A stretch of DNA of 50,941 nucleotides, the filler included, from Jimgerdemannia flammicorona (Eukaryota): NCBI GenBank assembly GCA_003990765.1. It is 2 parts of 2 records of this genome, joined end to end, with 100 filler letters (N's around TTAATTAATTAA, not from the genome) between each part and the next. Parts side by side here need not be neighbours in the genome. Positions count along the whole stretch, not along the records: positions 1 to 25,426 come from RBNJ01000834.1; 1 more part is not named here. One strand, written 5' to 3'. This document shows, piece by piece, positions 1,601 to 45,230 of the stretch (position 1 is the stretch's first letter; every line of letters begins with the position of its first letter). The position numbers were made by a program, and so were the translations under genes. The notes under the pieces were generated by a model. That model made no database searches. It was not told where the DNA came from and saw only the letters and a list, made by a program, of their open reading frames with translations.

Positions 1601-1601
1601 G

Positions 1602-7459: not shown

Positions 7460-10400
7460 TCCTTTGCCAATGTGAAAGAGATATCATATTATAGACCAGT
7501 AGTTATCTAAGTCTCCAGTCTAGTTGGCATCATAAGTATCAGATAGCCAGATGTAATTACTCTTGCCACTGCTTCCACTCAATCCAATGTCATTGCCCAA
7601 TATAAGCATATAGTATACTGATCTCTTTAAGTATTAGAAAATCCTCTTAATGGTGCTTCAATTTGAATTATCATAGCAGGAGAAGTATTGTGCTATATTT
7701 TCTATAGTATATAATATGTCAGATCTCATTCCTAGTATAAGATACATGAGAGAGCCAACCACTTGCTAATAGGGAATGTTGTTGGCACTATTCTTATTAT
7801 CATCATTCCTTGGATATAGTATTTGGTTTCCTTAACTTTACAGAAGTATCTATAGGAGTACTGATCAGCTTATATTCACTTATATTAAAGTATTTGAGAA
7901 TGGCTTTAGTATATGTTACTTATAAGAGGTATATAATGTATACATTCTTGTTACATGTAATCAATATCTCCAAAAGGAAGGATATATTGCCCATATCAGT
8001 TATCTTGAATTCTTAGCATAGAGTCTCCTTTACTCTATTAAGCACATTCTTACTAACTACAATAATGATATCATCAACCCATATATTAATAAATACTATG
8101 ATATCATCATAATACTGGATGTATATATAATTGTCTACTTTACAATGCTTGAATCTATTGTCAAAGAAAATGTTTGTCAATCCTTTTATTCTATAGATAT
8201 ACTACTTGCTTAATTCTATATAATCTTTTATATAGTTTACATATAAGCTTGCCATTCTAGTTGTCATATAGTTTATATCTTTGTAGTTAATAGACATATA
8301 GTTCAGTATCTATATCATTATTCAGAAAGACTGTCTTAACATCCATCTGATGGATCTCTAGATTATATAGTTCACTAATTACAAGGAGTATTCTAAGTAA
8401 AGTAAGCTTAAACATTAGTGAAAATGTTTCATCATAATCTATGCCATAATCTTGTAAGTAGTTCTTGGTAATGAAATAAGCTTTATACTACTCTATATTA
8501 CTATTTGTGTTATGTTTTATTCTATATACCTACTTGGATCTGATTGCTTGATGATTGAGTAGAAGGGGTATAAAATCTCATATACTGTTCTTGATGAGTG
8601 AATTGTATTCCTCATTCATCACTTGTTTCCATTTCTTGCTATCGGGATTGATTATAACTTCATCACATATACTTGGCTCACTGGAAGATATTATGATATA
8701 TATATATTCATATACTTCAGCTTAGCTCATATAGTGCTTATATTGTCATCAAGAGCTTGTTGATATATCCCAGTAATTTCCCAATTCTGAATGAGCTTCT
8801 TGGCATATTTTGGAGCTCTTTTGCACTTGTTTACCCTTTATAGAGGTAGAGGATCCCTCACCATTAGAAGATTCGCTATTATCATCTTTGATCTCTGTTA
8901 TTCTTGGCTCAGGCATCTGTGGCTCAGACTTAGATATGTATTGTTGTTGAAAATAGTTCTGATTGACTGCTGAAGAGGTGGATGATGGTTGTGCTGATTA
9001 TTGTATTTGCACTAGCTAAGATGTAGATATAGAGGTTTCAACTAATACTTTCATACAGAGTTTCAAGCTATTTCCTTTTTCTCTGAATTGTATATTATAC
9101 AAGATGACTATATATCTCTTGTATGGATTTCATAGTTGGTATGTTTTGCTGAAATACCCAAGAAATATATACTTGCTCACCTTGGGTTGGAACTTATTCT
9201 GGATAGTGTTGCTTTTGTTGGAGACATATGCCTTACAACTGAATATATATAGATATGATACATCTAGCTTAAATCTGCTCTATAATTCTTCAGAAGTAAG
9301 ATCATTATCTCTGGAATACTTATTATTGAAGAAATGTGTCAATTATATATATATACTATAGTGTTTATAGCTTCAGCCTAATAAGAATACAACCATCTGG
9401 CAGCATTGATCATTATATACACCATTTCTATGGCCATACAGTTAAATCACTCAGCTATACCATTCTGCTAAGAGATATAAAGAGCTCTTGTTTGATGGAT
9501 TGTATTGTGTTTTATCAGAAACTGCTTGAATGTATAATTGATGTATTTATATCTATTATCTGATCATATAGTACATATTCTATATTCAGTTTTATTTTCA
9601 GCAATTACTTTGAATTCTTTAAATTTATCCAAGACTTCACTCTTTGCTGATAGAAGGTATACATATGCTTAACACATATTATCATTGATAAATATCAGAA
9701 AATATCTCTTGCCAGAGTATGATAGAGTATGTATTAACCTATATATATTTGTATATATGAGGTTTAGAATCCTGGATACATGCTTTAATTGTTCTTTAAA
9801 TAGTTATCAAGAAGTCTTGTTTTCTGTACATATCTTACAAAAATTATTCTTGGGATATATATGAATCAGTAGTCTATTTACAGAGCTATTTCAGATCATC
9901 CTTCTAAGGCTCATCTTAATGATATGTCTTAAGCATTAATGCTAAGTATTGGATATATCAGATATAGTTGTCATATATGTGGAGACTTTTGTGCTATTTG
10001 GTATACCATTGATTATATAAAGACTACCATGTTTTGAGACTGTCATTAATCTCTTATTATTATGTAAATCATATACTATTACACTCTTTGAATGCATATG
10101 TATCTCTTTGTTGCCATGGGTCATCATTTTGCCTATAGAGAAGAAGTTCTTTCCTATCTCTAGAGCATATAGTATATCTATGTATAAGAGTAGCAGTAGG
10201 CTTCATAATATTTCTATAGAGATGTATGTCGATATTTCTCTTTTCTTGAGCATAGATGATATTATTATCTCTCAACTTGATGAGTATAGGGTACTCAAAC
10301 ATTTGATATATAGAGAACCATTCCCTATGTGGTATCATATATTATATAGCTCCAGAATCCATTAACTAAATATTATTATCATTAGCTATATTAGTGTATT

Positions 10401-11700: not shown

Positions 11701-12195
11701 TAATATTAGAGTGACAGAAAGAATTATAAGAATAGTAAAGAGTAATATAATACAAATACTACTGAAACTAATAATAATTAGTGATATATTTTATATATAA
11801 GTAATATATATTAAGTATATAGAGAAAATATCTATATCTATGACAAAGCTATATATTTTTGAGAAAGTAAAAAATAATAATATTAATAGAAAATTATATA
11901 CTAATATAGCTAATAATAATAATATATAACTTATAGATTCAGATACTATATAATATATGATAGTCTATCATAAACCATTTTCCATAAATATATTCTTTAA
12001 GTATCTAGTACCAATTAAGTTAAATAATAATAATATTATATATACTCAAGAAAGAGAAAATATTAGTATATATCTCTATAAGAATATTATAGAGTCTGCT
12101 AGTACTTTTCAGAACATATTATATGTTCTGAAGATAGATAAAAATCTTTTCTCAATTAGTAAAATAATTATTTAAAGTAATAAAGAAATACATAT

Positions 12196-12653
12196 TATAA
12201 TGTAGCAGATGTGGAGATGGACAAATACATCAGATTTCTTTATCTTGAATTCTTGTCTTCTTGACTCCCAGAGTCGGTAGTTCCTTGAGGTCAAATGTGT
12301 TTCAAAGAGGTAATCCCAAAAGTCCCTTTATCAATATACTTGTTCTTTTTCTAACACTTTCGATCTGAGGTTTATTTACTTGAAGATACTGGGGTATTTA
12401 TATAAGTTAGCTAGCTATGAGATGACTTACTAAGTTATGTGGCTAAGTTATGAGTCATTTAGCACTTTGCAAAATATTTTGCCAGTTGTAAAATGCTATA
12501 CTATATCGAGAAGCTCGATCTTACACTTTGCAAAATATTTAGCAAATGGCAAAATTGGAGACTACTGACTATGTGGCTATACTACTTTCAGACTGGTTAT
12601 GATCAAGTATCTGTTCTCTATTTTCTTCTTCCAAATTTGGCTATACCATCACA
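12196..12653 (-). repeat. 3' LTR of gypsy copy 1
   Basis: 458-bp direct repeat of 18404-18861. TG...CA termini, one mutated. Confidence 0.95.
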
Positions 12654-12690: not shown

Positions 12691-13152
12691 CTATTTAAAC
12701 TTCTAGGCTTCAACAGTCTGTATGGTCTTGTACTGTACAATTTGTTGCATTACTGTTTCCCAATAGTACTACCTAACTTGGTCGAAGTCTGAGGGAGTTA
12801 CTCCTCGCAGATGGGCTAGTGCTGGTTCATTCTCTCGGAATAGCTTGTGGATTCTCTTAGTGATAGTAATCTGTGAATAAGAGAGCTGGCATTCTGCAAT
12901 CTAATTTTCTATAGTTATTTCTGGGTCCTGGTTGAGTACTTGGCCAAGTTTGAAGTACTCTTGAAATTCAGTTCAATGTTGATAGGCCTTGAAGTGTGAG
13001 ATTCGAGAGAGATGAGTCTGTATGATGCTTTGGATACTGTCATATGACTCTTCTATGGTCAGAGGCTTGGTAGTGTGCCATTGTCTCTTGATGGCTCTTT
13101 GGGCAGTGCTAGTGATCTTGAGTGCCATTGCAGTACTTTTGTTATTGGTCAT
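12691..13152 (-). pseudogene. Accessory ORF3 of gypsy copy 1 (internal stops)
   Basis: 462 bp, colinear with the intact ORF at 20061-20522. ATG overlaps the integrase end (CATGACCAATAA). Confidence 0.85.
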
Positions 13153-14339: not shown

Positions 14340-17300
14340 GGTGATTTTGTGGAGGTGGGGTCCACTGAGGTGTCCATGAGAGGGCATCAGCATTGCATTG
14401 GTTCTTCTGGGGTGGTGAATGATTGTGGCATCATATGCTTGCAGCTTTATGATCCATCAGGCATAGATTCCTTTGGATTCACTGGTAGTGAGCAACTAGA
14501 TGAGTGCTGAGTGATCTGTCTGGATGGTGAAATGTCTGTCTGCCAGATAGTAGTGGAATTTCTCTACAGCCCAGATAACTATAAGGCATTCCAGCTTGTA
14601 TGATTTGTAGGACTGCTCAGCTTTATGGGTACCTCAGCTGAGATAGGCTACTACATATTCAGTACTATCCTTCTTTTAAGCAAGGACTGCTCTAAGTCCC
14701 AGAGTACTGGCATCTGTTTGCAAGATAAATTCTTGAGTTCAGTCTGGTCTTCTCAAGATTGGGGCCTGGGTCAATCTGGTCTTGAGCTCATCAAAGGCTA
14801 GTTGCTGCTGCTGTGTCCACTGAAACTTGACCTCTTTTCTGAATAGATCATAGATAGGGCTGGCAATGAGGGAGAATTTTTGAATAAATCTCCTATAATA
14901 GGATGCAAGCCTCATGAAGGCTCAGGCTTCTGTGATACTGGTGGATATGGGGTATGCTGCTACTGTCTTGATTTTCATGGTGTCTGTATATGTTTCTCTA
15001 CCATTGATGATGTGTCTCAGATATGTAATTTCTTCTTCTCCAAACATGCATTTCTTGGGCTTAATGTAGAGGCCATGTTTGTGAAGTCTTCTGAGGATTT
15101 CCTCAATGTGGTCCAAGTGCTCCTTGGCTGTCTGACTGAAGATGATCACATCATTTACATATACCATCATTCATTTTTCCATAACATCCCTGAAGATGCT
15201 ATTCATCATTTGCTGGAAACTTGCTGGTATATTGCACATTCTGAAGGGCATGTGGAGGTAGATATAGATTCCATCAGGAGTGATGAAGCTTGACTTTTTG
15301 CTGGCTTCCAATGTAAGGCTGATTTGGTAGAATCCAGAAAACAGATCTAGGGTGGTGTAGAATTGCACTTCATTTCCTAGTATAATAAGAATGTCACTGA
15401 TATTGGGCAATAGTTGTCTATCTTTCTCTGTGACCTCATTGAGCCTTCTATAGTCTGTACAGAGTCTAGGTGCAAATTCTCCAGATCGGCTCCCTTTCTT
15501 GGGTGTAAGGACAATGGGTGAGGACCAGGGGCTACTGGCTTCCTTGATGTTACCAGATTCCTCCATTTCCTTGATTTCAGTCTTGAGCCATTCCCTGTAT
15601 GCTGGCAGAATGGGGTGGGCTTTTTGGTAAATTGGCTTTGCTTCTCCAGTATTAATATTGTGATAGTATAGAGGCTTCTTGGTCTTGATGTCCTTGAAGT
15701 CAGTGGCCAGTACATCTTCAAATATATGTAGGAGATTCTATAGTTCTTTTCTGAGAGGAAAGTTCTTTCCAATTATATAAGTGTGCTTGTCCTGATTTTC
15801 CTCCTTCTTGTGTAATCTGGGTTACTGTAAGAACTCCTCTTCCTATTGAGCTGAACCTGTTTCTTCCTCACTCTGTTTGTCTGGCTTTTGTAACTTTCTT
15901 GATCCTTGGTTAAGGACAGGTAGGATGAGCATTTGTGCTAGCCAATCCTTCTTCCTTACTTTGAAAGGAATGGTTGGGTTGTGGTTTCTGGCAAGAAGGA
16001 GGATTTCTCTAGTGTAATCTAAATTGATACCTCCTCCTTCTTTAGATATTTCACTTTTGACCAAGCTACTTCTTGTCTTGAGGATTTCAATGTAGTTTGG
16101 CAGGATGGTTACTTTAATTCCTGTTCCCAGTATAGTAGTGGTTTGCAGTTCGAGGATTGTGTATGTTGTAGTGGACAGGTTCATTCCTGCTACATTTTCC
16201 AATTTGTACTGTAGCATGACTGTATCAGGGTGGATTCTTTGTATCTTGACTGTAATGTCTTCTTTATCATCACTGTCATCCAGTAGCTCTGGTGGTCCAT
16301 CTTCTGGTTCCTCCTGGTTCTTCTTTGGCTTGTTGGTGATCTTCTTCACCTTGATGATACAGGAATAGCAGCAATCCAAGTGCTGGGTACAGTACATTCT
16401 TTCACCTTGGGGGCACCTTCCTAATGGGGTGTATCCATCTGCAATTCTTCTATACTATTCCTCCTCTGTCAACTGCTTACCTTTTCCCTTCTTTGTGGTA
16501 ACCATATAGGCTTCTTCTTCTTGCTCTTCCTCTATCTCAGAGCAAACTCCTTTGTGGACATTGATAGGAATTCTGATTTTCTTTCCCCAGTAGATGATTT
16601 GCATCTTCTGTATACTGAGGTCAATCATTGCCTTGGCTTTGTGAAGCCATTGATTGCTGATGAGGATATCATAGTTGGTTGCATTGATAACAATGACATC
16701 TACCAGGATAGTAGCTTCACCAAACTTGATTGGAACATCCTGGATCTTTTCCAAGGGTGTTGCTTATATTCCATTGGCTGTAACAAATTCCAGTTTGGTG
16801 GCTTCTTCTATTTCCCAGCCTAGGTGGTCTACTGCTTTCTTGGTGATGAGACATCCTCCTGCTTCTGTATCAATGATAGCTTCAAAGACTCAGTCCTCAA
16901 TCTGGCAGGTAGTATAGGCTGATGTCTTCTGATTATCTTTGCTTTCTTCATCTGAATCTTCTTGTGCATTATTGGCCTCAATGATTCTGTATCCTTGATC
17001 TTTTCTGATATCAGATATCCCCATTCTCACTTGCTGTCTGAATGTTGGGATTTTAGCCAACTGGCCAAAGGTTGCATTCACCTTCTGGTCTTTGAGGTCC
17101 TTAAAGATATCATATTTGAAGGTCTTGTTCTTGCATAATTTCTATTCCTTCTTTCCTTCACTTGATGGGATGGTATTTCAAATAATATCTTCTACTGCTC
17201 ACTCCAGTTCAATATCTTGTTCTAGCTCCATATCTTGATCAGCTTCAGTCTGCTGGATTTCCTTTTCGATGACTGTTTCTGGTTGTTTCATCTGTGTCTG

Positions 17301-18403: not shown

Positions 18404-18861
18404 TGTAATATAGCAGATGTGGAGATGGGCAAGTATGTTGGATTTCTTTATCTTGAATTCTTCTCTCCTTGACTCCTAGAGTTGGTAGTTCCTTGAGGCC
18501 AAATGTATTTCAAAGAGGTAATCCCGAAAGTTCCTTTATCAGTATACTTGTTCTTTTTCTAACACTTTCGATCTGAGGTTTATTCACTCAAAGATACTGG
18601 GGTATTTATACAAGTTTGCTAGCTATGAGATGGCTTACTGAGTTATGTAGCTAAGTTATAAGTCATTTAGCACTTTGTAAAATATTTTGCCAGTTGCAAA
18701 ATGCTATACTATATCAAGAAGCTCAATCTTGCACTTTGCGAAATATTTAGCAAATAGTGAAATCAGGGACTGCTGACTATGTAGCTATACTACTTTGGGA
18801 CTGGTTACAATTAAGTGTCTATTCCCTATTTCCTTCTTCCAAATTTGGTTATACTATTACA
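18404..18861 (-). repeat. 5' LTR of gypsy copy 1
   Basis: Adjacent to the PBS. Direct repeat of 12196-12653. Confidence 0.95.
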
Positions 18862-19192: not shown

Positions 19193-19547
19193 GTTTGAAG
19201 AATAATAAGGAGATTATAATAGTATCAAAATGAGATAATCTTTATTCTATATATATAACTATACTTGATACATCCAATATATAGTATTAATTCTTCAGAT
19301 ATATAGACAAATTAAGTCTAAAAAGAATAATTAGAAAAAGTTCAGTGAGGAGATTGCTAGTATATATAACCTAATGACAACTTTTATAATTATATAGCAA
19401 AAAAAGCATATTAACATCTATTCAATAAACATATAAAATACATATCTAGTATACTCAATTTAATCTATATAGATATATATGGTCTAATATATATTACTTC
19501 TTATAATAGAAAATGATATTTTATTATATTTATTAATAATTATATAT

Positions 19548-20023
19548 TGTAACGTAGCAGACACTTACTCTTGGAAGTACATCGGATTTCTGTATCTTGA
19601 AAACTTGACTGTTCTGACTCTCGCAGAGTCTCTTGAAATTGCAGGGGAGGGTAGGTGAGTTCGAAGTGTATCTGCCCGCAGGCTTACTAGTTCCTTTGCT
19701 ATCTCTTTGCTTTGAACTATTTCGATCTGAGGTTTATTCACTCAAAGATACTGGGTTATTTATACAAGTTTGCTAGCTATGAGAGAGTGGCTAAGTAATA
19801 AATGAGTCATTTGGACTTTGTCGAAACATTTGGACAATGTCTAAATGCTATACTAAATCGGGGTATTCGATTTGGATAATGTCTAAAATTTAGATAATGT
19901 CTAAGGATTTAGACAATGTCAAAATCGAGGACTGCTAACTATAAGGCTATACTACTTTGGGAATGGGTGTGATCAAGTGTCTATTCCCTATTTCCTTCTT
20001 CCTAATTCGGCTATACTGTCACA
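19548..20023 (-). repeat. 3' LTR of gypsy copy 2
   Basis: 476-bp direct repeat of 24832-25307. Confidence 0.96.
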
Positions 20024-20060
20024 ACTTCCTTCTGAATGGATGGTCTCGTCCCTGAGGCAT

Positions 20061-20522
20061 CTATTCAAACTCCCAGACTTCAACAGTCTGTATGGTCTTG
20101 TAGTGTGCAATTTGCTTCATGACTGTCTCCCAATGATGTCTTCTCACTTTCTCGAAGTCAGTAGGGGTTACTTCTCTCAGGTGGTCTATTGCTGCTTCAT
20201 CTTCTTGGAATAACTTGTGGATCCTTTTGGCAATAGTGATCTGTGAGTGGGAGAGTTGACACTCGGCAATCCAGTTCTCCTTGGTCTTTGCTGGATCCTG
20301 ATTGAGCACCTGTCCAAGCTTAAAGTACTCTTGGAATTCTGCCTGATATTGATAGGCTCTAAAGTGCGAGATCCGAGAGAGATGAGTCTGCACAATACTC
20401 TGAATATCCTCACAGAATGGCTCTATGGTCAGAGGCTTGGTGGTGTGCCATTGTCTTTCGATGGCTCTTTGGGCAGCACTAGTGATCTTGAGTGCCATCG
20501 CAGTACTTTTGTTACTGGCCAT
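20061..20522 (-). CDS. Accessory ORF3 (153 aa, unknown function) between integrase and the 3' LTR
   Basis: Open frame conserved in position and length in copy 1. Homologous to the LTR-borne ORF at 26521-27510. Confidence 0.8.
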   Translation of the reverse strand: MASNKSTAMALKITSAAQRAIERQWHTTKPLTIEPFCEDIQSIVQTHLSRISHFRAYQYQAEFQEYFKLGQVLNQDPAKTKENWIAECQLSHSQITIAKRIHKLFQEDEAAIDHLREVTPTDFEKVRRHHWETVMKQIAHYKTIQTVEVWEFE

Positions 20523-21705
20523 GATATTTCTTAAGTTGGTTTTGGGAAATGGTGGTGGGGATTATTGTGCCTGAGGATTTTCGTAGCCAAAAGGTAGTTC
20601 CTTTTATATCTTGCACAAGGTAAGGTTCTTCCCACTTGGGCTCCAGTTTTCGTGACCATGAAGCTTCTACCATATTCCAATACACTAGGACTTTGTCTCC
20701 TATCTTGATAATCTCCAGGGGTTTGTGGGTCTTTTCCGCATTCCTCCATTGCAGTGTCTGCACCTTGGTTATGTAATCCTCAGCCTTCTTCCTGATTTGG
20801 TGTAGTCTCCGTATTTCCACATCCACATGTTTCCATACAGCATCTCTATTGGGTGATAGGGTTTCTTGAGAACATTCTTCTCCGAATAGCATTTCTTGAG
20901 GGGTAAAGTGGGTACTTTGTGATCAGATATCCCGGAGAGCAGATAATGCTATTGACAGATAGTGATCCCAGTTCTTATAGTTATCACAGATCTTAGCGAT
21001 AACATTCTTGAGGGTTTTGTTGGTCCTTTCTACTTGTCCATTTCCTTGAGGGTAATATGCTGTGGTCTGAATATGCTGAATCTTGTACTTCTTGTAGAGA
21101 ACTTCGAAGAACTGGTTCACGAATTCAGTTCCTCTATCTGTAGTTACTTGTGTTGGGGTCTTGAACTGGCAGATGATTTCCTTATAGAAGAAATCGGCGA
21201 TTGACTGTGCATTGGCTTCCATAAGGGGTCCCGCTTCTATCCACTTTGTAAAAAGGTCTATAATGATGATGATATATCAGTTGCCAGTCAAAGTCAAGGG
21301 TAGAGGGCCGATTACATCCATTGCAATATGGGTGAATGGTACTGGTTCTATGTGTGCTGATCCTGGGGCTTGATTCCATTGGTCTTGTTTCTGTTTCTGG
21401 CATTTGTCGCATGTTTTGACGAATTGTCTGATATCTTCCTCCATCCCTGGCCACCATATTGTTCTTCTTGCCTTGTCGTATGTATTCGTTCCTCCTAGAT
21501 GGCCAAGTTCATGTACTGATTTTATCACTTGCTCCTTCTTGTGTTTGGGTATAACCAGTAGTTTTCCTTTCTTCAGTGTTTCTCCGTTGGTTTCGAATTG
21601 TTTCCATGTCCTGTTGATAATCATTTGTGTCCATTCTTCCAGATGTTGGGGCATCTTTCGCTGTCTCAGGTATGTGATAATTCCATAGTAGAGCTCCTTA
21701 TTCAT
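20512..21705 (-). pseudogene. Integrase as a separate ORF (398 codons, few in-frame stops)
   Basis: HELGHLG...CDKC zinc finger, D-D-E core (IAMDVIGP, TTDRGTEF, QVERTNK) and a GPY/F-like KWEEPY, all in one frame. No chromodomain seen. Confidence 0.9.
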
Positions 21706-24700
21706 GATTGCTTTGTTGGTTAGAGGTAGTTTGAGGTGTCCATGAGAGAGCATCTGCATTGGAATTTGTTCTTCCAGGGTGGTGTACGATGGTTACATCA
21801 TAGGCTTGTAACTTCATTATCCATCTGGCATAGATTCCTTTGGGTTGTCTGGTTATCAGTAGCCAGGTGAGAGCTGAGTGGTCCGTCTGGATGGTGAAGT
21901 GTCTTCCAGCCAGATAGTAGTGGAACTTTTCCACAGCCCAGATGACTGCAAGGCATTCCAGCTTATAGGACTTGTATTCTTTTTCAGCTCCTCAGGTTCC
22001 ATGGCTAAGATATGCAATGACATACTCCTTTTTGTCTTCTTTTTGAGCTAGGACTGCTCCTAGTCCTTATGCACTTGCATCCGTCTGAAGGATAAATTCC
22101 TGGATCCAATTGGGTCGTCTGAGGATAGGTGCCTGGTCAGTCTGACCTTGAGTTCATCAAATGCTTTCTGTTGTCTGCCAGTCCACTGGAACTTGGTATT
22201 CTTCTTGTTGAGTTTGTAGATCTTGGTGCTGGTGAATACTCCTCTTCCTGTGGATCCGAATCCTTTCTTTCCTCTTTTCGTTTCCTCCAGATTCTTGACT
22301 TCTATGATCCTTGGCTGTATGATTGAGAAGATCAACATCTGTGCCAATCGGTCCTTCTTCTTGACTGGGAATGGAATTGTAGGATTGTGGTTCCTAGCAA
22401 TGAGTAGAATTTCTCCAGTATAGTCTGAATCAATGACTCCTCCTTCAATTGTGATTTCGCTTCTAGCCAGGCTGCTTCTTGTCTTGAGAATCCTAACATG
22501 ATCCTTTGGGATGGTCATCTCCAGTCCAGTTGGGAGTAGGGTGGTTGTCTGGGGTTCCAGTACAGTCTCTTCCACTGTAGCGATGTTCATTCCAGCTGCA
22601 TTTTCTGACTTGTATTCTGGCAGGACTGCATCAGGGTGGATCTTTCGAATTTTGACCTTGATTTCTTCTTCATCATCACTGTCCTCCAGGAGGGCTGGTG
22701 GTTCATCATCTTCCTCCTTCTCTTCTTCCCTGATCTGTTTTTCGAGAGCTTTCTGCCTTCTTTCCTCATAGATCTTCTTGGTTCTGATGGTGCACTGGTA
22801 GCAATCATTGACATGCTCTGTACAGTACATCTTGATCCCATGAGGACAGACTCCTTGTGGGGCATAGCCTTCTGCGATCTTCTTGCACCATTCTTCTTCA
22901 CTCATCTATCCGACCTTCTTCTTTTTTGGAGTAGTCACCATATAAGCTTCCTCTTGCTCACTCTCTTCTTTCTCCATATCGGGCAGGACTCCTTTGTTGA
23001 CGTTGATGGGAATTCATATCTTCTGTCCCCGGTAGGTGATCTGCATCTTCTGAGCATTGAGATCGATTACTGCCTTGGCTTTGTGAAGCCATTGATTGCT
23101 GATGAGGATGTCATAGTTGGTGGCATTGGTTACGATTACATCTACTGGGATTATTGCTCCTCCGATCTTGATGGGAACATCTCAGATCTTTCCCAGAGGT
23201 GTGGCTCTTGTGCCATCGGCTGTGACAAATACTAGCTTAGTTGCTTCTTCCACATCCCAACCTAGGCAGTCTGCTGCCTTCTTACTGAGGAGACATCCTT
23301 CTGCTCCTGTGTCAATGATGGCTTCAAAGACTCGATCCTCAATTTGGCATGTTGCATAAGCAGAGGTTTTGTGATTGTCCTCACTTTTTTCTCCTGAATC
23401 CTCTTGAACATTATTGGACTCAGTTATCTTCCATCCTTGTTCCTTAGTTGTTTCGGCAAGTCCAAACCTCATTTGCTGTCTGAATGTTGGGATTTCTGCA
23501 AGCTGACCAAAGGTTGCATTGACCTTTTGTTGACTGAGATCCTTGAAGATATCATACTTGAAGGTCTTGGTCTTGCGAAGCTTCTTTTCTTTTTCTCCTT
23601 CGCTGGCTGGAGTGGTCCCTCGGATGATATCTTGAACTACTTGCTCCAGCTCGATATCTTGGTCCATCTCTTCGGCTTCACTTTCTGTGGCAGTTTCCAT
23701 CTGCTTTTCCACTGGGTTCTTCTTGGGTCTTCCTGTTGGTCTCTTGTAGGGTTCTTTGCGAACACCCTTCTTGGTGGTCTGAGCAGGGTAGGCCTCCCAT
23801 TCCTCTTCATTGGATTCTCCGATTTCTTCAAAGATGATTGTATTGGCCTGCTCCTTGTTTCGTGTAGCATTGCTTGGTTGAGCCTTGTGTTTGGTTTCAC
23901 TCATACATTTGTAGGAGTAGTGGCCTTCTTCTCCGCAGCTGTAGCAGGTACCTTTCTTCTTGTCTGAGGTGGCGGCAAACTTCTGAACAAGGTGGCGATC
24001 TCTTCCTCAGATTTCCTTTACCACATCTCCCAGGTGGGCAGTCATTTCAGCAAACCTTTTGGTGAGTTCCTCCATAGGGTCACTGTTCTTTTGCTGCTCA
24101 GTAGCTTTTGGCTGAGGTGTGTTTCGATTGATCATTGTGGTGGGGATCATACTGGTTGCCTTGGGTGCCTCGATTCTGACTCCTGTAACTCTTTCCATTG
24201 TATGGTCTTGTGGGTGTCTGGCTATCCAGTATCGCTGAGCATAGGTGACCTTCTGTGGCAGATCCAGAATCACTGGTGATGAGCGGATGGCCATGGCTAT
24301 TTCCGGATGGACTCCTTTCATGAAGGTTGCTTCAACTACTTGATCTCGGATAGCAGTAGTATAATCTGCAAGGATTATCTGATATCGAATTCTGGTATAG
24401 AATGTGTTTGGATCCTCACTCATTCCTTAGCATGTTGTGTTGAGCTAATCCTTCAGGGCTTGCTTGATCTCATCTGTGTAATATGTATTTCGGAGCCAGG
24501 TCTTCTGTGCTGTCAGTATAGCATCCGCATCATTTCCTGCATGGGTTGCGGCTGTGAATGCTGCTCTGGCAGGACCTCGTAGGCTGAAGGGCATGAGGGC
24601 TACTTGATGTACTGCTGTCAGGGTCCTTACAGCAGCATACTGCTCAAAATCATCAATGAAGGTGATGATTGATTCATCTGAGGTATATCCATGGAATACT

Positions 24701-24717
24701 GGTGGTCTCATATCCAT
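21698..24717 (-). pseudogene. gag-PR-dUTPase-(RT deleted)-RNase H polyprotein of copy 2
   Basis: ORFs 24445-24963, 24007-24423, 23182-23904 and 22060-22905 share one frame. RH (TDHSALTWL...NADALS) ends at TAA 21698. Confidence 0.9.
22246..22662 (-). other. dUTPase domain within pol (homolog at ~15840-16257)
   Basis: Five trimeric-dUTPase motifs: AAGMNI, KTRSSLA, GGVIDSDYTGEI, DRLAQM, RGKKGFGSTG. Confidence 0.95.
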
Positions 24718-24810: not shown

Positions 24811-24828
24811 ACCAGCCAATGGGCACCA
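24811..24828 (-). other. PBS TGGTGCCCATTGGCTGGT of gypsy copy 2
   Basis: TGG begins after a 3-nt spacer following the 5' LTR. Conserved in copy 1. Primer tRNA not identified. Confidence 0.75.
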
Positions 24829-24831
24829 AGT

Positions 24832-25307
24832 TGTAACATAGCAGATGCTTACTCTTGAAAGTACGTCGGATTTCTGTATCTTGAAAACTTGACTGTTCTG
24901 ACTCTTGTAGAGTCTCTTGAAATTGCAGGGGAGGGTGGGTGAGTTCAAAGTATATCTGCCCACAGGCTTACTAGTTCCTTTGCTATCTCTTTGCTTTGAA
25001 CTATTTCGATCTGAGGTTTATTCGCTCGAAGATACTGGGTTATTTATACAAGTTTGCTAGCTATGAGAGGGTGGCTAAGTAATAAATGAGTCATTTGGAC
25101 TTTGTCAAAACATTTGGACAATGTCTAAATGCTATACTAAATCGGGGTATTTGATTTGAATAATGTCTAAAATTTAGACAATGTCTAAGGATTTAGACAA
25201 TATCGAAATTGAGGACTACTAACTATAAGACTATACTACTTTGGGAATGGGTGCGATCAAGTGTCTATTCCCTATTTCCTTCTTCCTAATTCAGCTATAC
25301 TGTCACA
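24832..25307 (-). repeat. 5' LTR of gypsy copy 2
   Basis: Direct repeat of 19548-20023. TATAAA on the minus strand at ~25044-25049. Confidence 0.96.
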
Positions 25308-25426
25308 ATATATAAAGTATATATATACTTATTATTAGTAGAGAACAAAGTTCTGAATAAATTTAAAGAATTTAAAGTAATTATAGAGAATGAAATAAGA
25401 TATAGAATATATACTATATGCTTAGA

Positions 25427-25526
25427 NNNNNNNNNNNNNNNNNNNNNNNNNNNNNNNNNNNNNNNNNNNNTTAATTAATTAANNNNNNNNNNNNNNNNNN
25501 NNNNNNNNNNNNNNNNNNNNNNNNNN
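25427..25526. other. Assembly gap with artificial TTAATTAATTAA six-frame-stop linker
   Basis: 100-bp N spacer with the linker at 25471-25482. Confidence 0.98.
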
Positions 25527-25755: not shown

Positions 25756-27798
25756 TGTAAGAGGGTTACTTTTTAGGATAACTGTTATGTAGTTCTGGAA
25801 GGGTTTTCTGAAAGTTCTGGATATTCTGGAAGACTGTTTTCTTATGGTCAAGGTCAATTTCGTATGGAGTACGTCCTCTACACTTATTAATTTCAAGATT
25901 GGGTTGACGTCTCAACCAAAGTCCTTTTCCGGACTAGTTCTGGATGTTCAGGATTTTCCATATTTCAGGAAGTTCAGGAAACTAAGACCAGCTTAGTTGG
26001 ATTGGCATATTGCTGCAGACAATACCCAATTAGGAAATTTCGTGGCAGGGTTGGGAGTGGGACCTAACAGGGAGCGGATTTACTTAAGAGTGGTTTGTGG
26101 GTTATGGAATAGATTTATTTGCTATTCATGATATTGCTATACTAGGAGTATTTGTGTGAAGGGGTATTGTGGGGAAGTATTCAGGAATGTTCTTGTCTGT
26201 TCGAGTCTCAGATTCTGAGGTCTGGGGGAGGGGGTATTTATACTAGTGAGGGGCTATCTAGACTATGCTAGATATGGATGTAGCACTAAGTGCCTTGCTG
26301 AGTCGGAATGCAGTCACGTAGTACAAGTGTGATCTGACATGTCAAGAGATCGTCTGACTGCTGAGTCAGTTCACAGTCACGTCATACAAGGCTAATCTAT
26401 CTATACTATGACTGCTAGACTATTTATAGGTCTAGGCACTATCTGGGTAGTCTTCGATGATATCACCATCAATTGCATCATCTCTGATGAAGTAGTTGTC
26501 TAGGAAGAGTGGTTCACGGATTACTTCTCCTTGTTGGCTGAGGTAGTAATCATTGGGACTTCATCTCCGTCCCATAGGATAGCATCATCTGTCTCGTACC
26601 CTGGATAAGGTGTTGGTGGGCAAAGGATAGGTGTATTGTCTTCGCTTTCATCGGATTCACTATCTGCGTACCTTCTATAGGTTACAGCACTATGAGTCAT
26701 GGAGTTGTAGTAAGCTGGCGGCTCTGGTTCAAGTTGCTTATACTCAGGTGGTGGAGTGGTTGGTTCAATCTCGAGGGTTGTCTGGAGGTACAGATTGTGT
26801 TCTCCGGTCTCTTCATTGTAGTTGAAGTAGTCGGGGGTGAATGCAGGTTGGTATTCGTGCCAGTGGTCATTGTCCCAATAAGTCTCATATGCAGTTATGA
26901 ACTGTTGTAAGTTCATTGGCAAGGTTGGCGGAGATCCTTGGCTAGAGGTCATGTCGGTGTCAGAGGGGTCATTGTCTTCTGCTTTGTCTTCATTGAAGTG
27001 GATTATATCGTAGACATCCTTCATGGTGTATCCGACTTGAGGCATTTGCAGGATATGGTCATCGGGGTGCGGGAAAGTTCTGTCTGTGGTTTCGACATAC
27101 TCGAGGTACTTGTGGTTGATTTCTTGTATCATGTCATCGATTTGGCCATAGGACAGAGTAGCAACCATTTCGCTGATAGTGACTCGGAGGTGGGGAATAA
27201 AGGTGTTGTACTCATAGAAGAGATCTCAATGTTTGTAGGTGATGAGCTTCTGGTGTTGAGACAGCTGGGTAATGTCTGTATCATGGTGGTGTTCGACCAT
27301 GTCTTCCAGGAGGCGGCCAATCTGGTAGTAGCTTGAGATTTGTCCGATTCGGTGTGCCTCGCTAAGCATGTTCAGGGCGTTCCATCGGGCTTCCACAAAG
27401 TAGAGGGGTGCTAGGCTATGGATATTCATGAGGGGCAGAGGGGGTGTGGCTCGGTTGACAATGGCATTTCAAATGTCAGCGCGGATGCGGTTGTAGATCT
27501 CAGTGGTCATGTTGGTGTGTTTGGAAGTTGTGGTTGTTGTTTGTTTTGGTTTTCTGATTCGACGCATCTCGGTGCTCAGTATATATGCATTTGGTCCTAA
27601 TTGGTAAGGTTCCGTTTGTGTAGATCTTGTGTTCCATGACTTTGTATTGACTCAGCTTTGTGCGCTGTGACTTCGGTTTGACTCAGCTTCGTGATCAAGC
27701 AGGTGATTTCCAGATTTGTTCGGAGGTCGCATGTGATTTCAGTGGCTTGTTCAGAGGGTGATGTGTAATTTTGGTGGCTTGGAGGTTGTGCGCTTACA
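25756..27798 (-). repeat. Probable 2043-bp 5' LTR of a third LTR retrotransposon (internal part runs into the gap)
   Basis: Inverted termini TGTAAG...CTTACA, adjacent PBS, TATAAATACCCC at ~26231-26242. Sharp composition change at 27798. Partner LTR is not in the window. Confidence 0.75.
26521..27510 (-). pseudogene. 329-aa ORF inside the LTR: ORF3-like N-terminal domain plus acidic/Pro/Tyr-rich C-terminus
   Basis: ATG at 27510 and ORFs 27226-27429 and 26521-27168 are all in one frame. Interrupted by only two TGA codons, probably CGA>TGA. Confidence 0.8.
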
Positions 27799-28701: not shown

Positions 28702-31700
28702 TTTTTTTTTTTTTTCAATTGACTTTAAAGTTCTACAGATTTTAATTAAAAGAGAACCTAGACTATATAGGCCAAAACCCTTCTCTTCTACTTCTCAAGC
28801 ACTATACTTCTATTAAATTTAGACTAGCTATTATTTAGCAGTTTGATCATACTAGATACAGTAGGACTTAAGATAGTCTATACCTCATTCTGTGTATCAT
28901 ACTCTTTCTACTATCAGAGAGTAAGCAAATATATATTAATAACTAAAGATATATATCTGAAATCTCAATATATATATAAGACTATATGTACTTAAGCTAA
29001 TTTATATAGCCTCTACCATCTCAAGAAAAGAGACAGATAAAGAAAAATCTCTCTCAAAGTACAGAATAATAGATAGAATCTAGTTCTCTCTAATGAGATA
29101 AGTAGAGAACTTATATATGAGATAAGAGGAGACCTCTAATACTCTACTACTCAAGCCTATAAGCCTTAATTATATTACTATATCAGCTCTTAGTTTTAGT
29201 TAAGTATAGCTAAAATATCTAATCCAGATAGCCTCAGACCTCTCTGACTATTTCCAATAACTAAGATTCAACTCTACATATTGCCAAAAGCAGCCAAGAT
29301 TAATACCTACTATCTAATTACTCTATATCAATCAGAAGACCTACTGATATAGCATCTACTCTTGTTCTAATGACTATTACCAGTCTGATACTTAACTGGT
29401 TTACTATTATTACTCTTTCTCTTATTTATGATAGCCATCTCTCCTTTTTATCTAATTTTACTTAAAAAATAGTTATCTATATCAGAACTATACTTGCTAA
29501 GAAGTTTGTCAAAGCTATGAAGGCCCCATTATAGATACTGAAAACCTATAGATAATTTATACTAGTACTTGATATCCAAGATCAGCTGACTTCTTATGTA
29601 GTTTGTGATATACTAAGACAATACTTTATTGATAATAGCAAAAGAAAAAAGGTGCTGTACTAAAACAGATATATTCCAGAAATAGTCAGAGATATTAAAA
29701 ACTATAAAAAAGTAGAGAAGACACTGATTTGATACCAATAAAGGGACAACTCATCACTATTGCCTCACTTGGCTCAAACTGCCTAGAGCAAGCTAAGTCA
29801 CACAAATATCTTTCAGTAAAAGACAACATGATTTCAAGTTTTTATTTCAAACATACTGGTGTACATCATGCGGCAGGAGTCTATCTACAAGGCACAATAA
29901 GTTTCAGAGAAAACCATCAAGTTTTGATAACATGGCTAGTCAAGATCCCTCTAGCTCTGAGCATCTGGAGAGAAGGAGGCCTGGTCTGTGTATTCTCAAG
30001 AGCTTTGCAGCTATTGCAGAGGCTGGTATAGCTGCAAGAGGGGCTGGTGGTCAGGAGAGGTCTGGTGGAATTGAGACTTAGCATACTGTGGTTGGAAACA
30101 GGAGAGCTGCAGCCAGGCCCTTGGGGGTGGGGCAGGGGGGACATAGTGTTGACAGGGAGAGGGGTCAGGTGATGGGTCAGGTGATAGGTCAGGTGGCTGG
30201 AAGGGGACAGGGGTCTGGTGGTGTGATACTGGAGACTGGTTCTTCTGTAGCTGGACTAGTGGCTGGGGAGAGGACTGCTGGTGGCATAGCTGTGACTGGT
30301 GAGGTGACCACTGGTGTTTTTGAGACCAAGGAGAAGGTGACTCTGATAGCTGGAATGAGTAAGTTGGTGGTGAGGCCCTTCTTTCACAAATCAGTATTGA
30401 CATGGGTAATTTTGGTAAATTTCTTGGGATTGGCAATATCAGCTAGAGAGGTTCTGAGGCTGGTGGAGAAGGAAGTGGCTGGGGCAGAATCCTTGAAGTT
30501 TATCCCTTCAGCGCAAGCAGTGGAGATTTGATTTGTGAAGGAGAATGCAATAGTAAAAGCGCTGGAAAAAGGGTTGATGGTCAAGGGTGTCTGGATTGGG
30601 ATGGCAAGATGTTTGAGGTGGGACCTGTGAGCAGTTCAACTGGTGGTGGAGGGTTTGCTTACTCTGGGCAGATAGGAGACCAAGGAGATGGTGGTAGAGG
30701 TGCTGGATGGCTATGGTAAGATGGTGGATTTTGGGTTCATATTCTGGGAGAGCACCAAATTGAGGAATGGTAACTGCAAGATGATGCTGTGACTGGAAGG
30801 CAAAGAGGTGACTGGTCTGGGATGAGATTGGCCTGAGGGGATTCGAATTGGAGAGCAAGAGTGCAAGGTATGGAAGAGGAAGGGGGTGGAACAGGAGGAG
30901 GAAGAGTTGGCAATTGCTCTGGAGGAGAGAGAGGCTGCAAAGGAGTTGCAAAAGAGGAAGTGGGAAGAGTTTGCCAAAGATTGGGTCTGGATTCAGATAG
31001 ATGGCAAGCAGAAGAGATGAAGGAAAGGAAATTGGGAGTACCTGCAGGTGGCCCTTCAGGGGGCAGCAGTGGAAGAAGAGGCAAGAGTAGGTAGCTAAGA
31101 ATCAGATAGAGGGCATGGAAGTGGCAGAGGTGTCTTTCTTCCAGCTGGGTGGTGTGGAGAGCTCAGCACATGCACCAGTGAGAGGAAAGTGGGCAGATAA
31201 GGAGAAGGTGGGAGATGGAGGCTTTGATGCAGATATTGAAGTAGTGCTGGAGATGCAGGTTGAGGACACCCATATGGCTGGGGTGGTGAATGTTCATTGG
31301 GAGTGCCCTGAGGCTGGTGAGGTGGTACATTTGGAGAAGGTTGCAGAGGAGAATGAGCTGGTAGATATAGCTTTGGATGTGTTGGCAGATAGGGAGCAAC
31401 TACAGGAGCTGAGCAGGACCCCCAGACCATCAACTCCTGGGCCCCTGGTGATGATGGCAAAGAGCTGGTATCAGGCAGTGCTTGAGGAACTTACTGAGGA
31501 AGACATCAAGGAAGTGGACATATTTCATAGATCTCAGGAGGTATGGGAGAGATTTCTCAATATTGCAATGTAGAGGCCTAAGCTAGTAACAGCAATAGTT
31601 GCAGCTCTTCTGGATGATAAAGGATATGATGTTGATGAGAGCAGGATGACAGACATAAGGAAGGTAGCAGCAGAAAGAGTGGATCTTTTCTGCAGTAGTG

Positions 31701-34700
31701 TGAATGGTGATTGAATCTGGAGGGCAATTTGTGAGGACCAGTGCGAGATCATTAGAGAAAGGGCTGAGAAAGTGGTGGTGGTCCCAGCTGAGCTTTAAAC
31801 ATTTCTTTGATGATGATGAACAGTTTATTCATCTTATTGATCAATGTCAATAGATTGCATGATAGTGTTAAGAGGTAGAGGCTGTTTCGATGGCTTAAAG
31901 TCAGAAGATATGATATTGTTTTTCATCAGGATGTTTGGGCATATAGAGAGCAGGACTTTGAGGTATGGAGTAAAGAGTGGTATGGTGGAACAGGTTGGAA
32001 CAAGCAGGTGGGCATCCTGGTTGGTATGGGTAAAGGTGAGCTGGTGGAGATTAAGATGTATAGTGATAGATTGGTGTAGAGAAGGCTAAAAGGAGGGGCA
32101 GGTGATGGTCTAGCAGTAGGCTTGGTTTATCTCCCTGCAGTTAGCAGAAAGCAAAAGCAATGAGTTGAGAACTGGTGGGCTTGGGAAGGTCAGGAGGTGG
32201 TTACACTGGACATTCTGGAGGGGGATTTCAATATAGTATATGATTAGACACTAGACAGGTCAGATGGAGGGGCAGGTGCAGCAGTATCTCCTGGGCTATC
32301 TCAGTGGCTTCAGGTGGAATATGATATGGGGCTGGTGGATGGCATCCATCAGCAGCAGGGAGATGAGTCAGGACCATTTACCCAGTGGCACCTAGTTGGT
32401 AATAGATTGGTCAGAACATGAATTAATTGGGTGCTGGTAGCTGAGTGTTGGGGTAATGTACTAGATGTTGCTGAGGTACATTGGTGCCCTTGGTCAGATC
32501 ATTGAGGAGTGGAGGTATGTGGCAGATTCCAAGCAGCAAACTGTGGTGGTAGGTGCTGGCATCTCAATGTGGCTTTACTCAGAAGGAAGAAGGAGAGAGA
32601 TCGGTTTGTAGACATTGTGCAACAGGAAGTAATATGGTAGTAGAATAATGGGCAGTTAATAGCAGAATGGTGGGGTAAATTCAAACATTTGGCTGGTGCT
32701 TACTAGTGAGATGTTGGTGAAGTAGCTGGGAAGGAGCAGAAGGATAAGACAAGGAGGGTCAAAAAGGGGCTGAGGTGGTGATTGAAGCTACTGGAAGGGG
32801 GGAACCTGTCTGGAGAGAAGTACTACTAGCTGGCAGTGGAGGTAGTGGAGCTACAGACTGAATTGAGGGCTGCTAAGAATAGGGCAGTAGATGGCCTACT
32901 TACCAGACTATGGGTGAGGTGGGTGGAGGAAGGTGAGAGACCAACTAAATACCTGTCTGGAATCTTGAAGGCCAGAAGGGTGTGACACAGCTGGGTCTCA
33001 GTACTGCACAAGGATGGAATGGAGGTCACAGAGATTGCTGATATATTGGGAGAGGTCTCAGGACAATAGCAGGCTCTCTGGCAGGATGGAGGGGGGCATG
33101 CAGAGAATGTAGTGCTTGGGGAGAATGATGGCAATATGGTGGACACTTGGCCAGTAGCAGTGGTACCTGAGATAGGGGGGGCAGTGATGGGTGAAGTATC
33201 TTTGAATGAAGTTTTGGAGGTATTCCAGAAGACACAGACTGGTTTGTCACCTGGGGAGGATGGGTTGCCCTGGGAATTCTGGAAGGAGTTCAAGGCAGAG
33301 TTTGGTGGCTGGTTGGTGGAGATGGCCAACTTTGTTCTGAAGGAGAGCAGCTGGATAGACAATGGTTCCTGGGGATTAGTTTCTCTTCTACATATATAAG
33401 AAAAAGGATAATTAGTGGGTGTGGCAGAATTGGCAATCTATTATGCTGCTGAATGTGGATAGAAAGATGGTTTCAAAGATTCTAGCAGAAAGGACGCAGC
33501 AGTATATGGGCAGGCTGATTGGTGAGGAGCAGTGAGGCTTTGTCAAAGGAAGGCAGATCAGAGATAGTACAGCTTGGGTGCAGAATGTCTTAGAAAGCTA
33601 TAGAAGCTGGCAGGTGGATGGTAGGATGGTTTTCCTGGACCAAAAGAAGGCCTATGACAGAGTGCAGTAGATCTACTTAGAGGCTCTTCTGAGGAAGGTT
33701 GGATTTGGAGCAGCAGAAGTAGAGAGATTAATGGGCTTGATATAGGGATACAGAGCAGCAGTTATGATGAATGGATGGAGTAGCCTGGAGTTTGCTTTGG
33801 GGCATAGTGTGCCATAGAGGGATTCTCTCTCTCCACTCCTTTATATACTCTCTCTGGAGCCATTACTGGTATAGCTGAAGGGACAGCTTTCTGGACTGCA
33901 AATGGGTGGTGTAGTATGGAAGCTAGGTGCTTTTGCAGATAATATGGTGGTTGGATTAGGTAGCATGGAAGACATAGACCTCTTGTAGAAAGGGGTTGGA
34001 CAGTATGAGAGACTGGTGTGGGCAAAACTGAATTGGAGCAAGAGATAATAGAACTTGGTACCAGTCTGGGGGAACATAGACAATTTGGACAATTGGTGGC
34101 TACTAGTAGTGCTGTTTGGTATCTGGGTATTTGGTTCTCAGTATATGGGACAGTTCTGCCAAAGAAGTAGTGGAGTGGTATAATTCAGAAGTTGGAAGAT
34201 ACTTTAACTAGTTGGTCTGAGAGGAGTTTCTCCTTGATAGGCAGGATTATAGCCTTGAATGTATATTGGCTGCCTAAATTATGGTATTTAGGGTATCACT
34301 TAGACTTTCTGAGATGGGTAGTGCAGTGGTTGAAGAAGATTGTAGAAGGCTGGTTATGATATGGGAAGCAGCTACAGATTGGGTGGGATGCATTGGTGAT
34401 GTAGATGACTGATGGCGGCCTAGGGTTGGTGGACTTCAGGTAAAGACTGAAGGTACTTAGGGGTTGGTGGGGGTACTGATTGGCTGAAATAGATAAAGGG
34501 GGCTGGGGCAGGCTGGCAATGGACAATTGGGAGATTCAGTTCTGCCCCTATGGTAAGGTTTGGAAGGATATATGGGGTTTGCTTCAAGTTGGAAATGTCA
34601 GTCGACTGCAGTATAAGGAATTCTGGTGGAGCATGGTGGAGGCCTGGCTAGCTATGGGGTTGGCAGGGCCAGAGATGGAGGATGATAAGGATTCTGAGCA

Positions 34701-35566
34701 GAGATGGTGGCATTTGGGGGAACTCTATATTAGTGATCATAGTCTGAAGGAGTACTCATTGGTTGAGGTGATGGAATGGATCAGGCCTGGCCCTCTAGAG
34801 AGATAGCTGACAGGTTGGCAGAAGGCAGGATTGGGTGAAGGCTGGGAGTGGGGCAGAATCTAGAGTTGGGGAGATATCTTACTCAAGGTAGTACCCCCTA
34901 AGTACTGGGTTATATAGTGGCACTTTCTGAGAAAGAATGTGATATTGGGGTATCAGATAGGATAGATGGAGGTAGATGGCTGTTGGGACTACAAGTGGTG
35001 CAGTGAGATAGATAGTGGGGTGGTTCAGTCACTAGAGCATATTCTGGCAGCCTGCCCTGGTATAGAAGGGTTCTGACAGTGCTTGGAAGATTACTGGCAT
35101 ACTGCTGGCAGAAGGACAGAGGATTCTGTCAGTCTGGTAGTCAAGTGCCAGCTGGTGGGAGAGATAGAAGATGTCTGGGGTAGCCTAGGTCGAGTCCTGG
35201 GGGTCTGGGTTCTGATGGCAGTACATTAGAGATGGGTGTTTGAGTGAGACCCATGGTTAGAGATTGGTGAGCTGGTGGAGCAGTGAAAGTGGCTTCTTTG
35301 GGAGGTAGTATAAGGGTGGTGATATCAGGGGAGGTGGCTTCAGCCAGAGACCTTGTGGAAGGTACAGGATATTATTCAGCAGAGTTGAGGACACCTGGTA
35401 TTGGATGAGTATGGGATCAGATAGAAGGAAGGAGTTGGGTGACTGACCCTATCTAAATATGATATGTTACTATAGCAGTTGTGGTTAATTTTCTTGTAAT
35501 AGTGTTTTAGATAGTTTGAATAAAGAAGTCCAAGTAACTGTAAAAAAAAAAAAAAAAAAAAAAAAA

Positions 35567-37296: not shown

Positions 37297-37739
37297 TACC
37301 CGTCGTCGTCACCGTTGTTGTAACAAACGACCCAACCGCAGTAATATATTTTTACGGCGATCAACGTTGTTCGCAACCCATGTATTATACTGTAGGGAAC
37401 AATGTCCAGATCACTGCGCAATTTACCTACCGGTCGTGGGCATACGTCGGGGACGTCGCGGTGGCACCCAGCAGTTCCACCTTTCGCAGTCCCCAGCCTT
37501 ACATTACTAGTGCTACATCATTAGGAAGCATTCAAACCCCTACCGCGTCGGCGCCCGCCGTCACGGTCACGGCCACGGCCACGGGTACACTTACACCGAT
37601 AACTCCAACCTCGACGCCGGTTTGCCTTGGTATGCAAGAGGCAGGATGTGCCGGTGTATTAACAGCAATTATCGGTGGCATTGTTTCAATTACTGTGGCC
37701 ATTATAACATTCATGTGTAAAAGGAATAAAGGCGAATAA
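37297..37739 (+). CDS. Exon 2: ectodomain, Ser/Thr/Pro stalk, TM helix, short basic tail
   Basis: CAG acceptor ends at 37296. Open frame through the ORF 37380-37739. TM segment GVLTAIIGGIVSITVAIITFMC followed by KRNKGE*. Confidence 0.85.
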
Positions 37740-44236: not shown

Positions 44237-44261
44237 GAGATATCAAAATAATAATATATAA

Positions 44262-45143: not shown

Positions 45144-45230
45144 CATTCCATCTTTCTCTGCTATAATTCGCATTACACACACTTTTACAACACACTTTCA
45201 AGGTGTTTATTGGAGAAAGATACTAAGGCA

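Follow-up and report, generated by a model that had tools for sequence, protein, structure and literature searches.

LTR retrotransposons are generally thought to depend on host transcription factors, and in foamy viruses the gene for the regulator Tas immediately precedes the 3' LTR. DNA-binding regulators encoded by the element itself are established in complex retroviruses and in some DNA transposons (PMC517496, PMC5735166, and general knowledge). As described in PMC517496, Tas (or Bel1) is a retroelement-encoded regulator that binds response elements in the LTR and in an internal promoter, and that carries a C-terminal acidic activation domain with little homology between species. In the Arabidopsis VANDAL DNA transposons, the accessory protein VANC is more variable than the core enzyme and has family-specific target motifs, arranged in tandem repeats, that change together between related elements; its demethylation function has been demonstrated (PMC5735166, on which the likeness drawn below rests together with bioRxiv 10.64898/2026.08.24.746577). 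A further precedent is CERV, encoded by Cer1 of C. elegans, a novel LTR-retrotransposon accessory protein that regulates the expression of its own element (PMC10309623).

Extra ORFs and dUTPase-bearing fungal gypsy elements are already known (PMC2864245, PMC5408684, PMC11963269). Non-env ORFs between pol and the 3' LTR are described in the bdelloid elements Vesta, Juno and TelKA (PMC5408684), in the plant element Retand (TRP28, PMC11963269) and in fungi ('add. ORF', PMC2864245), while dUTPase-bearing backbones occur in rotifer elements (PMC5408684) and in PosPlaTy3-5, with the dUTPase between protease and RT (PMC2864245). According to the portions of these reports drawn on here, the known extra ORFs encode GDSL, DEDDy, transmembrane or coiled-coil proteins or the antisense TRP28, none of which is matched by the gene described below, and neither a pairing with LTR palindromes nor a separate integrase gene is reported for them.

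The gene in question, ORF3, lies in a window (the whole stretch of DNA analysed) of 50,941 nt from Jimgerdemannia flammicorona (assembly GCA_003990765.1), in which positions 25427-25526 are N runs with a short spacer joining two contigs, everything from 25527 onward belonging to a different contig. ORF3 is like Tas in being element-encoded and a candidate regulator of the LTR; a tail that is acidic by composition is seen in a second clade of relatives (clade 2, below) and in a probable member located in U3. ORF3 is unlike Tas in its host, which is not a vertebrate virus, in lacking an accompanying env and in its putative targets, which are short palindrome arrays. Tas was absent among the Pfam and fold-search matches of ORF3. 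The likeness to VANC would lie in an accessory protein that varies more than the core enzyme and in type-specific repeat arrays that vary between related elements, here as putative targets, whereas VANC is large, belongs to a DNA transposon and contains DUF1985/DUF287, for which ORF3 gave no match. CERV, in the parts of its report used here, is translated from a spliced mRNA and functions in RNA export, so the likeness is that of an accessory protein with a proposed self-regulation. No description of the ORF3 family or of an ORF-U3 pairing was found in the freely accessible literature searched.

The host element

The window holds two tandem LTR elements, and the ORF3 studied here belongs to copy 2 (Table 1). 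The host element has the traits of Ty3/gypsy: TG...CA LTRs, a primer-binding site, a polypurine tract, a 4-bp ATAT duplication in both copies and the domain order protease - RT - RNase H - integrase, with the dUTPase between protease and RT. Copy 2 itself has no reverse transcriptase, the counterpart of the copy-1 segment at about 14829-15833 being deleted (around 22195-22238). The two LTRs of copy 2 differ at 25 positions, all of them transitions, and 14 of these involve CpG.

Table 1. Positions, along the window, of the features of both LTR elements and of the related gene on the second contig
Feature	Position	Strand	Remarks
Target duplication ATAT, copy 2	19544-19547 and 25308-25311		
3' LTR, copy 2	19548..20023	-	TGT...ACA; 94.8% identical to 5' LTR
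AATAAA signal	19733-19741	-	role predicted from consensus
TATA box	19757-19767	-	role predicted from consensus
TGACTCA site	19803-19809	-	role predicted from consensus
U3 array, type A, 3' LTR of copy 2	19808..19925		five imperfect GAC-nnn-GTC palindromes, 18-19-bp period
Polypurine tract, copy 2	20024..20034	-	short hairpin-like motif just before, about 20045-20056
ORF3, copy 2 (type A)	20061..20522	-	153 aa; open, ATG to TAG, zero internal stops
Codons 119-129 of ORF3	20136..20168	-	short variable helix (clade-2 model); candidate specificity segment
Integrase, copy 2	20512..21705	-	separate ORF, decayed; stop 8 nt after ORF3 ATG
ORF1, copy 2	21698..24717	-	gag - protease - dUTPase - RNase H
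dUTPase, copy 2	22246-22626	-	within ORF1
Primer-binding site, copy 2	about 24815-24828		
5' LTR, copy 2	24832..25307	-	type A array about 25092-25201
3' LTR, copy 1	12196..12653	-	GCA-nnn-TGC-type array about 12459-12556
ORF3, copy 1 (type W)	12691..13152	-	462 nt; 4 stops, at codons 60, 84, 128 and 150
5' LTR, copy 1	about 18404-18861		
Probable distant ORF3-family member	26521..27510	-	2 stops, altered end; next contig

Several minor features of these elements were recorded. Despite lacking RT, copy 2 still keeps ORF3 open. A Cys/His-rich segment at 22700-22905 (-), between protease and dUTPase and also present in loci L091 and L094, is possibly a zinc-binding module (Pfam E 0.085). Insertion flanks show TA at positions 2-3 in 71/87 cases (ATAT 23, CTAT 13, ATAG 10), a preference for 4-bp targets centred on TA. 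All three groups (the window clade, clade 2 and the chromovirus loci L133 and L146) have a short hairpin ahead of the LTR, and that of clade 2, found after the ORF3 stop where a classical purine tract is absent, carries compensatory differences among copies.

ORF3 is a conserved gene

ORF3 is a real gene of a dUTPase-bearing Ty3/gypsy element, in which it follows the integrase stop and precedes the polypurine tract. In both window copies, its ATG overlaps the last integrase codons and the polypurine tract begins about 25-35 nt past its stop. The coordinates agree with an initial annotation made from the sequence, which had described an ORF of 462 nt with equal position and length in both gypsy copies and intact in copy 2; the two are 78.6% identical, gap-free. 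The same annotation had seen neither a transmembrane segment nor a signal peptide, and indeed the highest 19-residue hydropathy of the copy 2 protein is 0.28 (0.17-0.74 among 10 proteins of the family, by hydropathy scan only). The window protein is non-basic (pI 6.8, net charge -1).

The genome contains at least 150 ORF3 copies with 88-100% amino-acid identity (the best 150 of 2320 candidates scored), and the length was 462 nt in 88/88 distinct copies examined. Such identity at 150/150 scored places, together with the constant length, argues that ORF3 is not a chance frame. Among 105 copies, from loci picked as best matches, 37 were free of stops.

ORF3 is under purifying selection, in its own frame only, with a dN/dS of about 0.1. 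By pairwise Nei-Gojobori counting of natural copies, two gapped ones being omitted, the ratio was 0.106 within group A, 0.122 within group B and 0.126 between the window copies, against 1.06 and 1.65 in the remaining sense frames. Between groups A and B, pN was 0.206 and pS 0.792, with a pN/pS of 0.26 (840 pairs; pS saturated). Transition bias somewhat lowers dN/dS ratios of this kind, and transversions considered alone agree with them, being enriched at third positions (14.2, 13.2 and 34.6 per pair by codon position). The suggestion of a conserved, non-env accessory gene is thus borne out: neither a dN/dS near 1 nor the frequent frameshifts that would have spoken against it were seen.

Overlapping genes and a separate integrase

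A survey of fungal LTR elements describes pol as a single ORF (PMC3248453, in the part consulted). The canonical pol arrangement is not found here, the integrase being out of the RT-RNase H frame, also in two metagenome elements of clade 2. The integrase is +1 to RNase H in 61/61 covered junctions (65 matched, four of them not covering the junction, and one locus duplicated), with an ATG in 57 and the stop 5 nt on in 60/61. In the window, the integrase ATG overlaps the RNase H end at 21698-21705 in copy 2 (+1 frame, RNase H stop 5 nt on) and at 14339 (-) in copy 1. ORF3 begins with ATG in 99/105 copies, and the integrase stop follows 5, 8 or 17 nt further along. The integrase of clade 2 is shifted -1 to RNase H, whose stop lies 7 nt on, and the integrase stop comes 50-53 nt past the ORF3 ATG; ORF3 is +1 to the integrase in both clades. 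A slippery-looking heptamer occurs at the clade-2 RNase H/integrase junction. A fixed programmed frameshift at this junction is disfavoured, because the two clades differ in the shift (+1 versus -1). A conserved splice acceptor ahead of ORF3, sought by eye, was missing in one of three clade-2 loci. Translation of ORF3 may rely on restart at the overlapping ATG or on a subgenomic RNA.

This tricistronic organization (integrase +1 in 61/61 junctions, ORF3 ATG in 99/105 copies with the integrase stop 5-17 nt on) is in line with ORF3 acting on RNA, in export (like CERV or Rev), in packaging or in ribosome restart, the U3 arrays described below then being host-factor sites that hitchhike with it. 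The compensatory differences in the clade-2 hairpin and the precedent of CERV (PMC10309623, as far as its report was drawn on) point the same way, and adjacency would account for the joint inheritance of ORF3 and U3. This alternative is considered unlikely, since it leaves unexplained that both half-sites of all array units change between subfamilies within one host, that acidic tails occur, and that a probable member moved into U3.

The ORF3 protein family

Close relatives of ORF3 are found in metagenome DNA, and a second clade, at 17-26% identity in alignment, occupies the equivalent position in other metagenome elements. Profiles of the two clades align with a probability of 97.2% (E 2.8e-11). 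Three of the four clade-2 loci retrieved cover the start, and in these the ATG again overlaps the end of the integrase frame; the two long loci carry gag-protease-dUTPase-RT-RNase H upstream of integrase and ORF3. A linkage to dUTPase-bearing gypsy elements had been anticipated and holds for the window and clade-2 elements, although the family is not exclusive to the integrase-adjacent position, given a probable member inside a chromovirus LTR.

ORF3 belongs to a conserved, unnamed family, predicted to be helical and with no fold match found, a description that stands even if the mechanism proposed below is wrong. The initial annotation, which recognised no named domain, is matched by searches of Pfam and PHROGs (nothing significant), of PDB sequences with the family profile (best E 0.1) and of known folds. 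HMMER with the clade-1 profile against 1.84 billion representatives gave 5 matches, one of which, the insect repeat protein P0012, was rejected as spurious; three word-based homologue searches covered near-length proteins only. In the ESM Atlas, the window protein hit just unnamed or unrelated clusters and a clade-2 protein had zero usable matches.

The model of the window protein was too poor (pLDDT 45.6; best Z of its fold search 4.7), and the structural description relies on the clade-2 protein P0026, modelled as all-helical with pLDDT 78 and pTM 0.74 (two of five models at that level) and a low-confidence tail at 143-167. The small helical protein proposed earlier is consistent with this model. 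A fold search with it gave no match (best Z 3.4, rmsd 3.2, 72 aligned), nor did Foldseek, a check suggested at the outset for the window protein (PDB E >= 1.6, BFVD E >= 0.89); absence of a match is by itself insufficient to prove a new fold. A presumptive resemblance to DUF3102/ParB-KorB-type HTH proteins was unsupported (Pfam E 0.05-0.13; ParB rows Z 2.5, rmsd 3.0-3.9, 42-69 aligned). ORF3 is also no chromodomain of the kind fused in frame to integrase (PF00385), as had been noted before: Pfam gave no match, the model of the clade-2 relative is all-helical and the frame is different, while a control chromodomain was detected at E 1e-14.

At the C-terminus of both clades is a short acidic motif that includes an aromatic residue, Trp in most cases. 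Clade 2 has an acidic, aromatic C-terminal tail (low-confidence in the model, net -11 to -12 in the last 30 residues), and in the window's clade the tail is nearly absent or very short. Acidic and aromatic residues together are the make-up of acidic activation domains.

An ORF3-LTR cassette behind a shared integrase

ORF3 and the LTR move together as one unit, and the integrase ahead of them is common to the types. In 61 copies with full flanks (five loci with unrelated or truncated upstream DNA were kept in this sample), clustering by ORF3 matches that by LTR (adjusted Rand 0.90, rho 0.90) and hardly that by the adjacent integrase end (adjusted Rand 0.06, rho 0.36). Between groups A and B, the four-fold transversion difference is 0.022 in the integrase and 0.405 in ORF3, which indicates old ORF3-LTR types behind a shared integrase. 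In two metagenome elements, identity steps down from 93-100% to 62-78% (one may be an assembly chimera).

The uncoupling of ORF3 types from the integrase speaks against a role of ORF3 as targeting or structural partner of integrase or Gag, either separate or as a frameshift extension that replaces the chromodomain. ORF3 occupies the position of the chromovirus chromodomain, +1 to the integrase in both clades, and one database protein (P0063) is an integrase-ORF3 fusion, although this single record is probably a frameshift error. Moreover, the TA at flank positions 2-3 (71/87) is common to loci carrying several ORF3 types, an ATG is conserved at two distinct codon positions, and a probable member lies in an element with its own chromodomain, making this the least probable of the alternatives considered.

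Old types kept behind a homogenised integrase could also reflect a host arms race, if ORF3 were a counter-defence protein that contacts other proteins so as to oppose RNA interference, DNA methylation or restriction factors. The decay of copies, mostly by C-to-T at CpG (14/25 LTR differences), suggests that the host silences them, and the terminal acidic motif with its aromatic residue, mostly Trp, shared by clades 1 and 2, would suit such contacts. Nevertheless, no positive selection was seen (dN/dS about 0.1) and a host-directed protein requires no match to its own LTR, so that this role is judged quite unlikely.

Palindrome arrays in U3 and their pairing with ORF3 type

Each LTR type carries four to six imperfect palindromes of 16-19 bp, located between conserved blocks, upstream of the TGACTCA site and the TATA box, and each ORF3 type is paired with its own array. 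In 81 copies, two or more GAC-nnn-GTC units were present in 41/43 of type A, 3/3 A-like and 0/35 others; GCA-nnn-TGC units in 7/10 of type W and 0/46 A or A-like; and ACA-nn-TGT units in 4/5 of type 1 and 1/1 of type 2. The type 3 array is mixed (0/19 copies with two strict units of one class). Palindrome counts exceeded all 60 shuffles in 8/8 type-A copies tested, were partly above them in W and type 1, and were not above them in type 3. Both half-sites of the units change together between types. Clade-2 LTRs have 20-21-bp arrays ahead of the same TATA context.

The pairing was followed genome-wide by exact pattern matches of codons 121-127 and of the first array unit, about 220-225 nt away: 598 cases were concordant (A/A 451, W/W 147) and 0 discordant (A/W 0, W/A 0). 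In an upstream control interval of 240 nt, inside ORF3, a W-start with an A-segment gave 19 matches and the reverse 0; most of these 19 represent a separate A-like lineage, leaving about 2-3 independent A/W mosaics, in one direction, all of which keep the A segment with the A array. The DNA between codons 121-127 and the array shows the same A-to-W similarity as the control intervals do, so crossovers between ORF3 segment and array should be possible. Zero crossovers in the 225-nt interval has a probability of about 0.15-0.3 (a rough estimate), and with just about 2-3 independent A/W events the lack of discordant cases is not significant and the test suggestive only. Linkage alone predicts that ORF3 and U3, being neighbours, travel together; the pairing result is suggestive of functional matching over linkage.

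Residues 121 and 125 separate both U3 types in 76/76 full-length A/W copies genotyped (77 rows, one of them not ORF3 in this part), and array type is tracked in all 76 by codon 121 and by the markers from codon 125 until shortly beyond the stop. A diverged specificity segment had been proposed for this region from a cluster of differences between the window copies. The two residues lie within it and lend it indirect support, but the clustering itself is borderline: 7/16 transversion-containing amino-acid changes of the window pair fall in residues 110-128 (scan p 0.03-0.09 by window length), and across six subfamilies the best 11-residue window is non-significant (permutation p 0.71). Both peptide segments quoted in that proposal exist in the window ORF3 copies, although some of the copy-1 differences are probably C-to-T or G-to-A decay, most sisters having D108 and several R125.

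These observations are best read, with slightly less than even confidence, as those of an element-encoded, LTR-binding transcription regulator that works like foamy-virus Tas or VANC. This reading draws on selection, the cassette, the type-specific arrays, the genome-wide pairing, the clade-2 arrays and the acidic tails. ORF3 would be a small all-helical regulator binding its own LTR at the array of promoter palindromes in U3, in a two-fold symmetric mode to which the palindromes point, and most likely switching transcription on or keeping the promoter from silencing; DNA binding, and activation rather than repression, are predictions from sequence. Specificity would be set by a short variable helix around residues 119-127, protein and binding sites would diverge together into specificity groups, and ORF3 and LTR would form a subfamily-specific cassette that is swapped by recombination behind a common gag-pol-integrase backbone.

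Several facts count against such a regulator. The window protein has a pI of 6.8 and almost no acidic tail, and the searches turned up none of the known DNA-binding folds. A simple residue code is likewise missing, as types W and 3 share GCA/TGC units and not residues 121/125. In addition, the TGACTCA site of the LTR is a usual site of host bZIP factors, and U3 repeats that are specific to a subfamily are widespread among LTR elements. The same ORF3-array pairing would be expected if ORF3 were an autorepressor or exclusion factor and kept down the copy number of its own subfamily, and the very short acidic tail of the window's clade would fit it; as the families are very high-copy and acidic, aromatic tails occur in clade 2 and in the U3-located member, repression is regarded as very unlikely.

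If the activator reading is true, a cognate protein-palindrome system would show how a retrotransposon stays on under host methylation, would explain the divergence of subfamilies at the LTR despite a common integrase, and would provide a natural set of protein-site pairs. The prediction lends itself directly to testing, since few residues distinguish type A from type W and their arrays are different.

A probable third member inside a chromovirus LTR

A profile search of the six-frame translated window matched only both known ORF3 copies and the region 26521-27510 (E 4.8e-7). Profile comparison of an open relative of this third member with the ORF3 family gave 66% (E 5.8e-5), values that make the link probable and not certain. 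The gene, of about 360-400 codons, begins about 290 nt inside an LTR (LTR start 27798) and lies in U3, followed by direct repeats with TGACTCA and then by a TATA box. It has a long acidic, aromatic, proline-rich tail, much longer than that of clade 2. On its internal side, where loci show it, the LTR is flanked by a polypurine tract and an integrase end, and a chromodomain was confirmed in one locus of this gypsy element. The chromovirus LTR family (26521-27798) is high-copy, with at least 150 copies (the best 150 of 3861 candidates scored).

Together with this member, a wider proposal can be made, slightly more tentatively than that of a regulator as such: the elements would themselves supply a sequence-specific transcription factor, one with a fold not yet described, in swappable lock-and-key cassettes of factor and U3 array, giving private subfamily circuits on a shared replication machine, like phage immunity groups, and the gene would also have moved into a chromovirus LTR.

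Other features of the window

AT-rich inverted similarities (71-76%), at 9559-9670 / 25315-25426 and 10096-10399 / 11896-12195, flank both LTR elements, which suggests that these may have inserted into an older inverted-repeat element. The regions 309-7030, 29769-35500 and 38345-50941 contain several related elements with strong GC skew, probably decayed and LINE-type, two of them in tandem, and an RT domain is found in them (Pfam RVT_1 at 47701-49377). Finally, a Thr/Ser-rich ORF of 119 aa at 37380-37739 (+), without a Pfam match and with a hydrophobic end, is possibly part of a host surface-protein gene.
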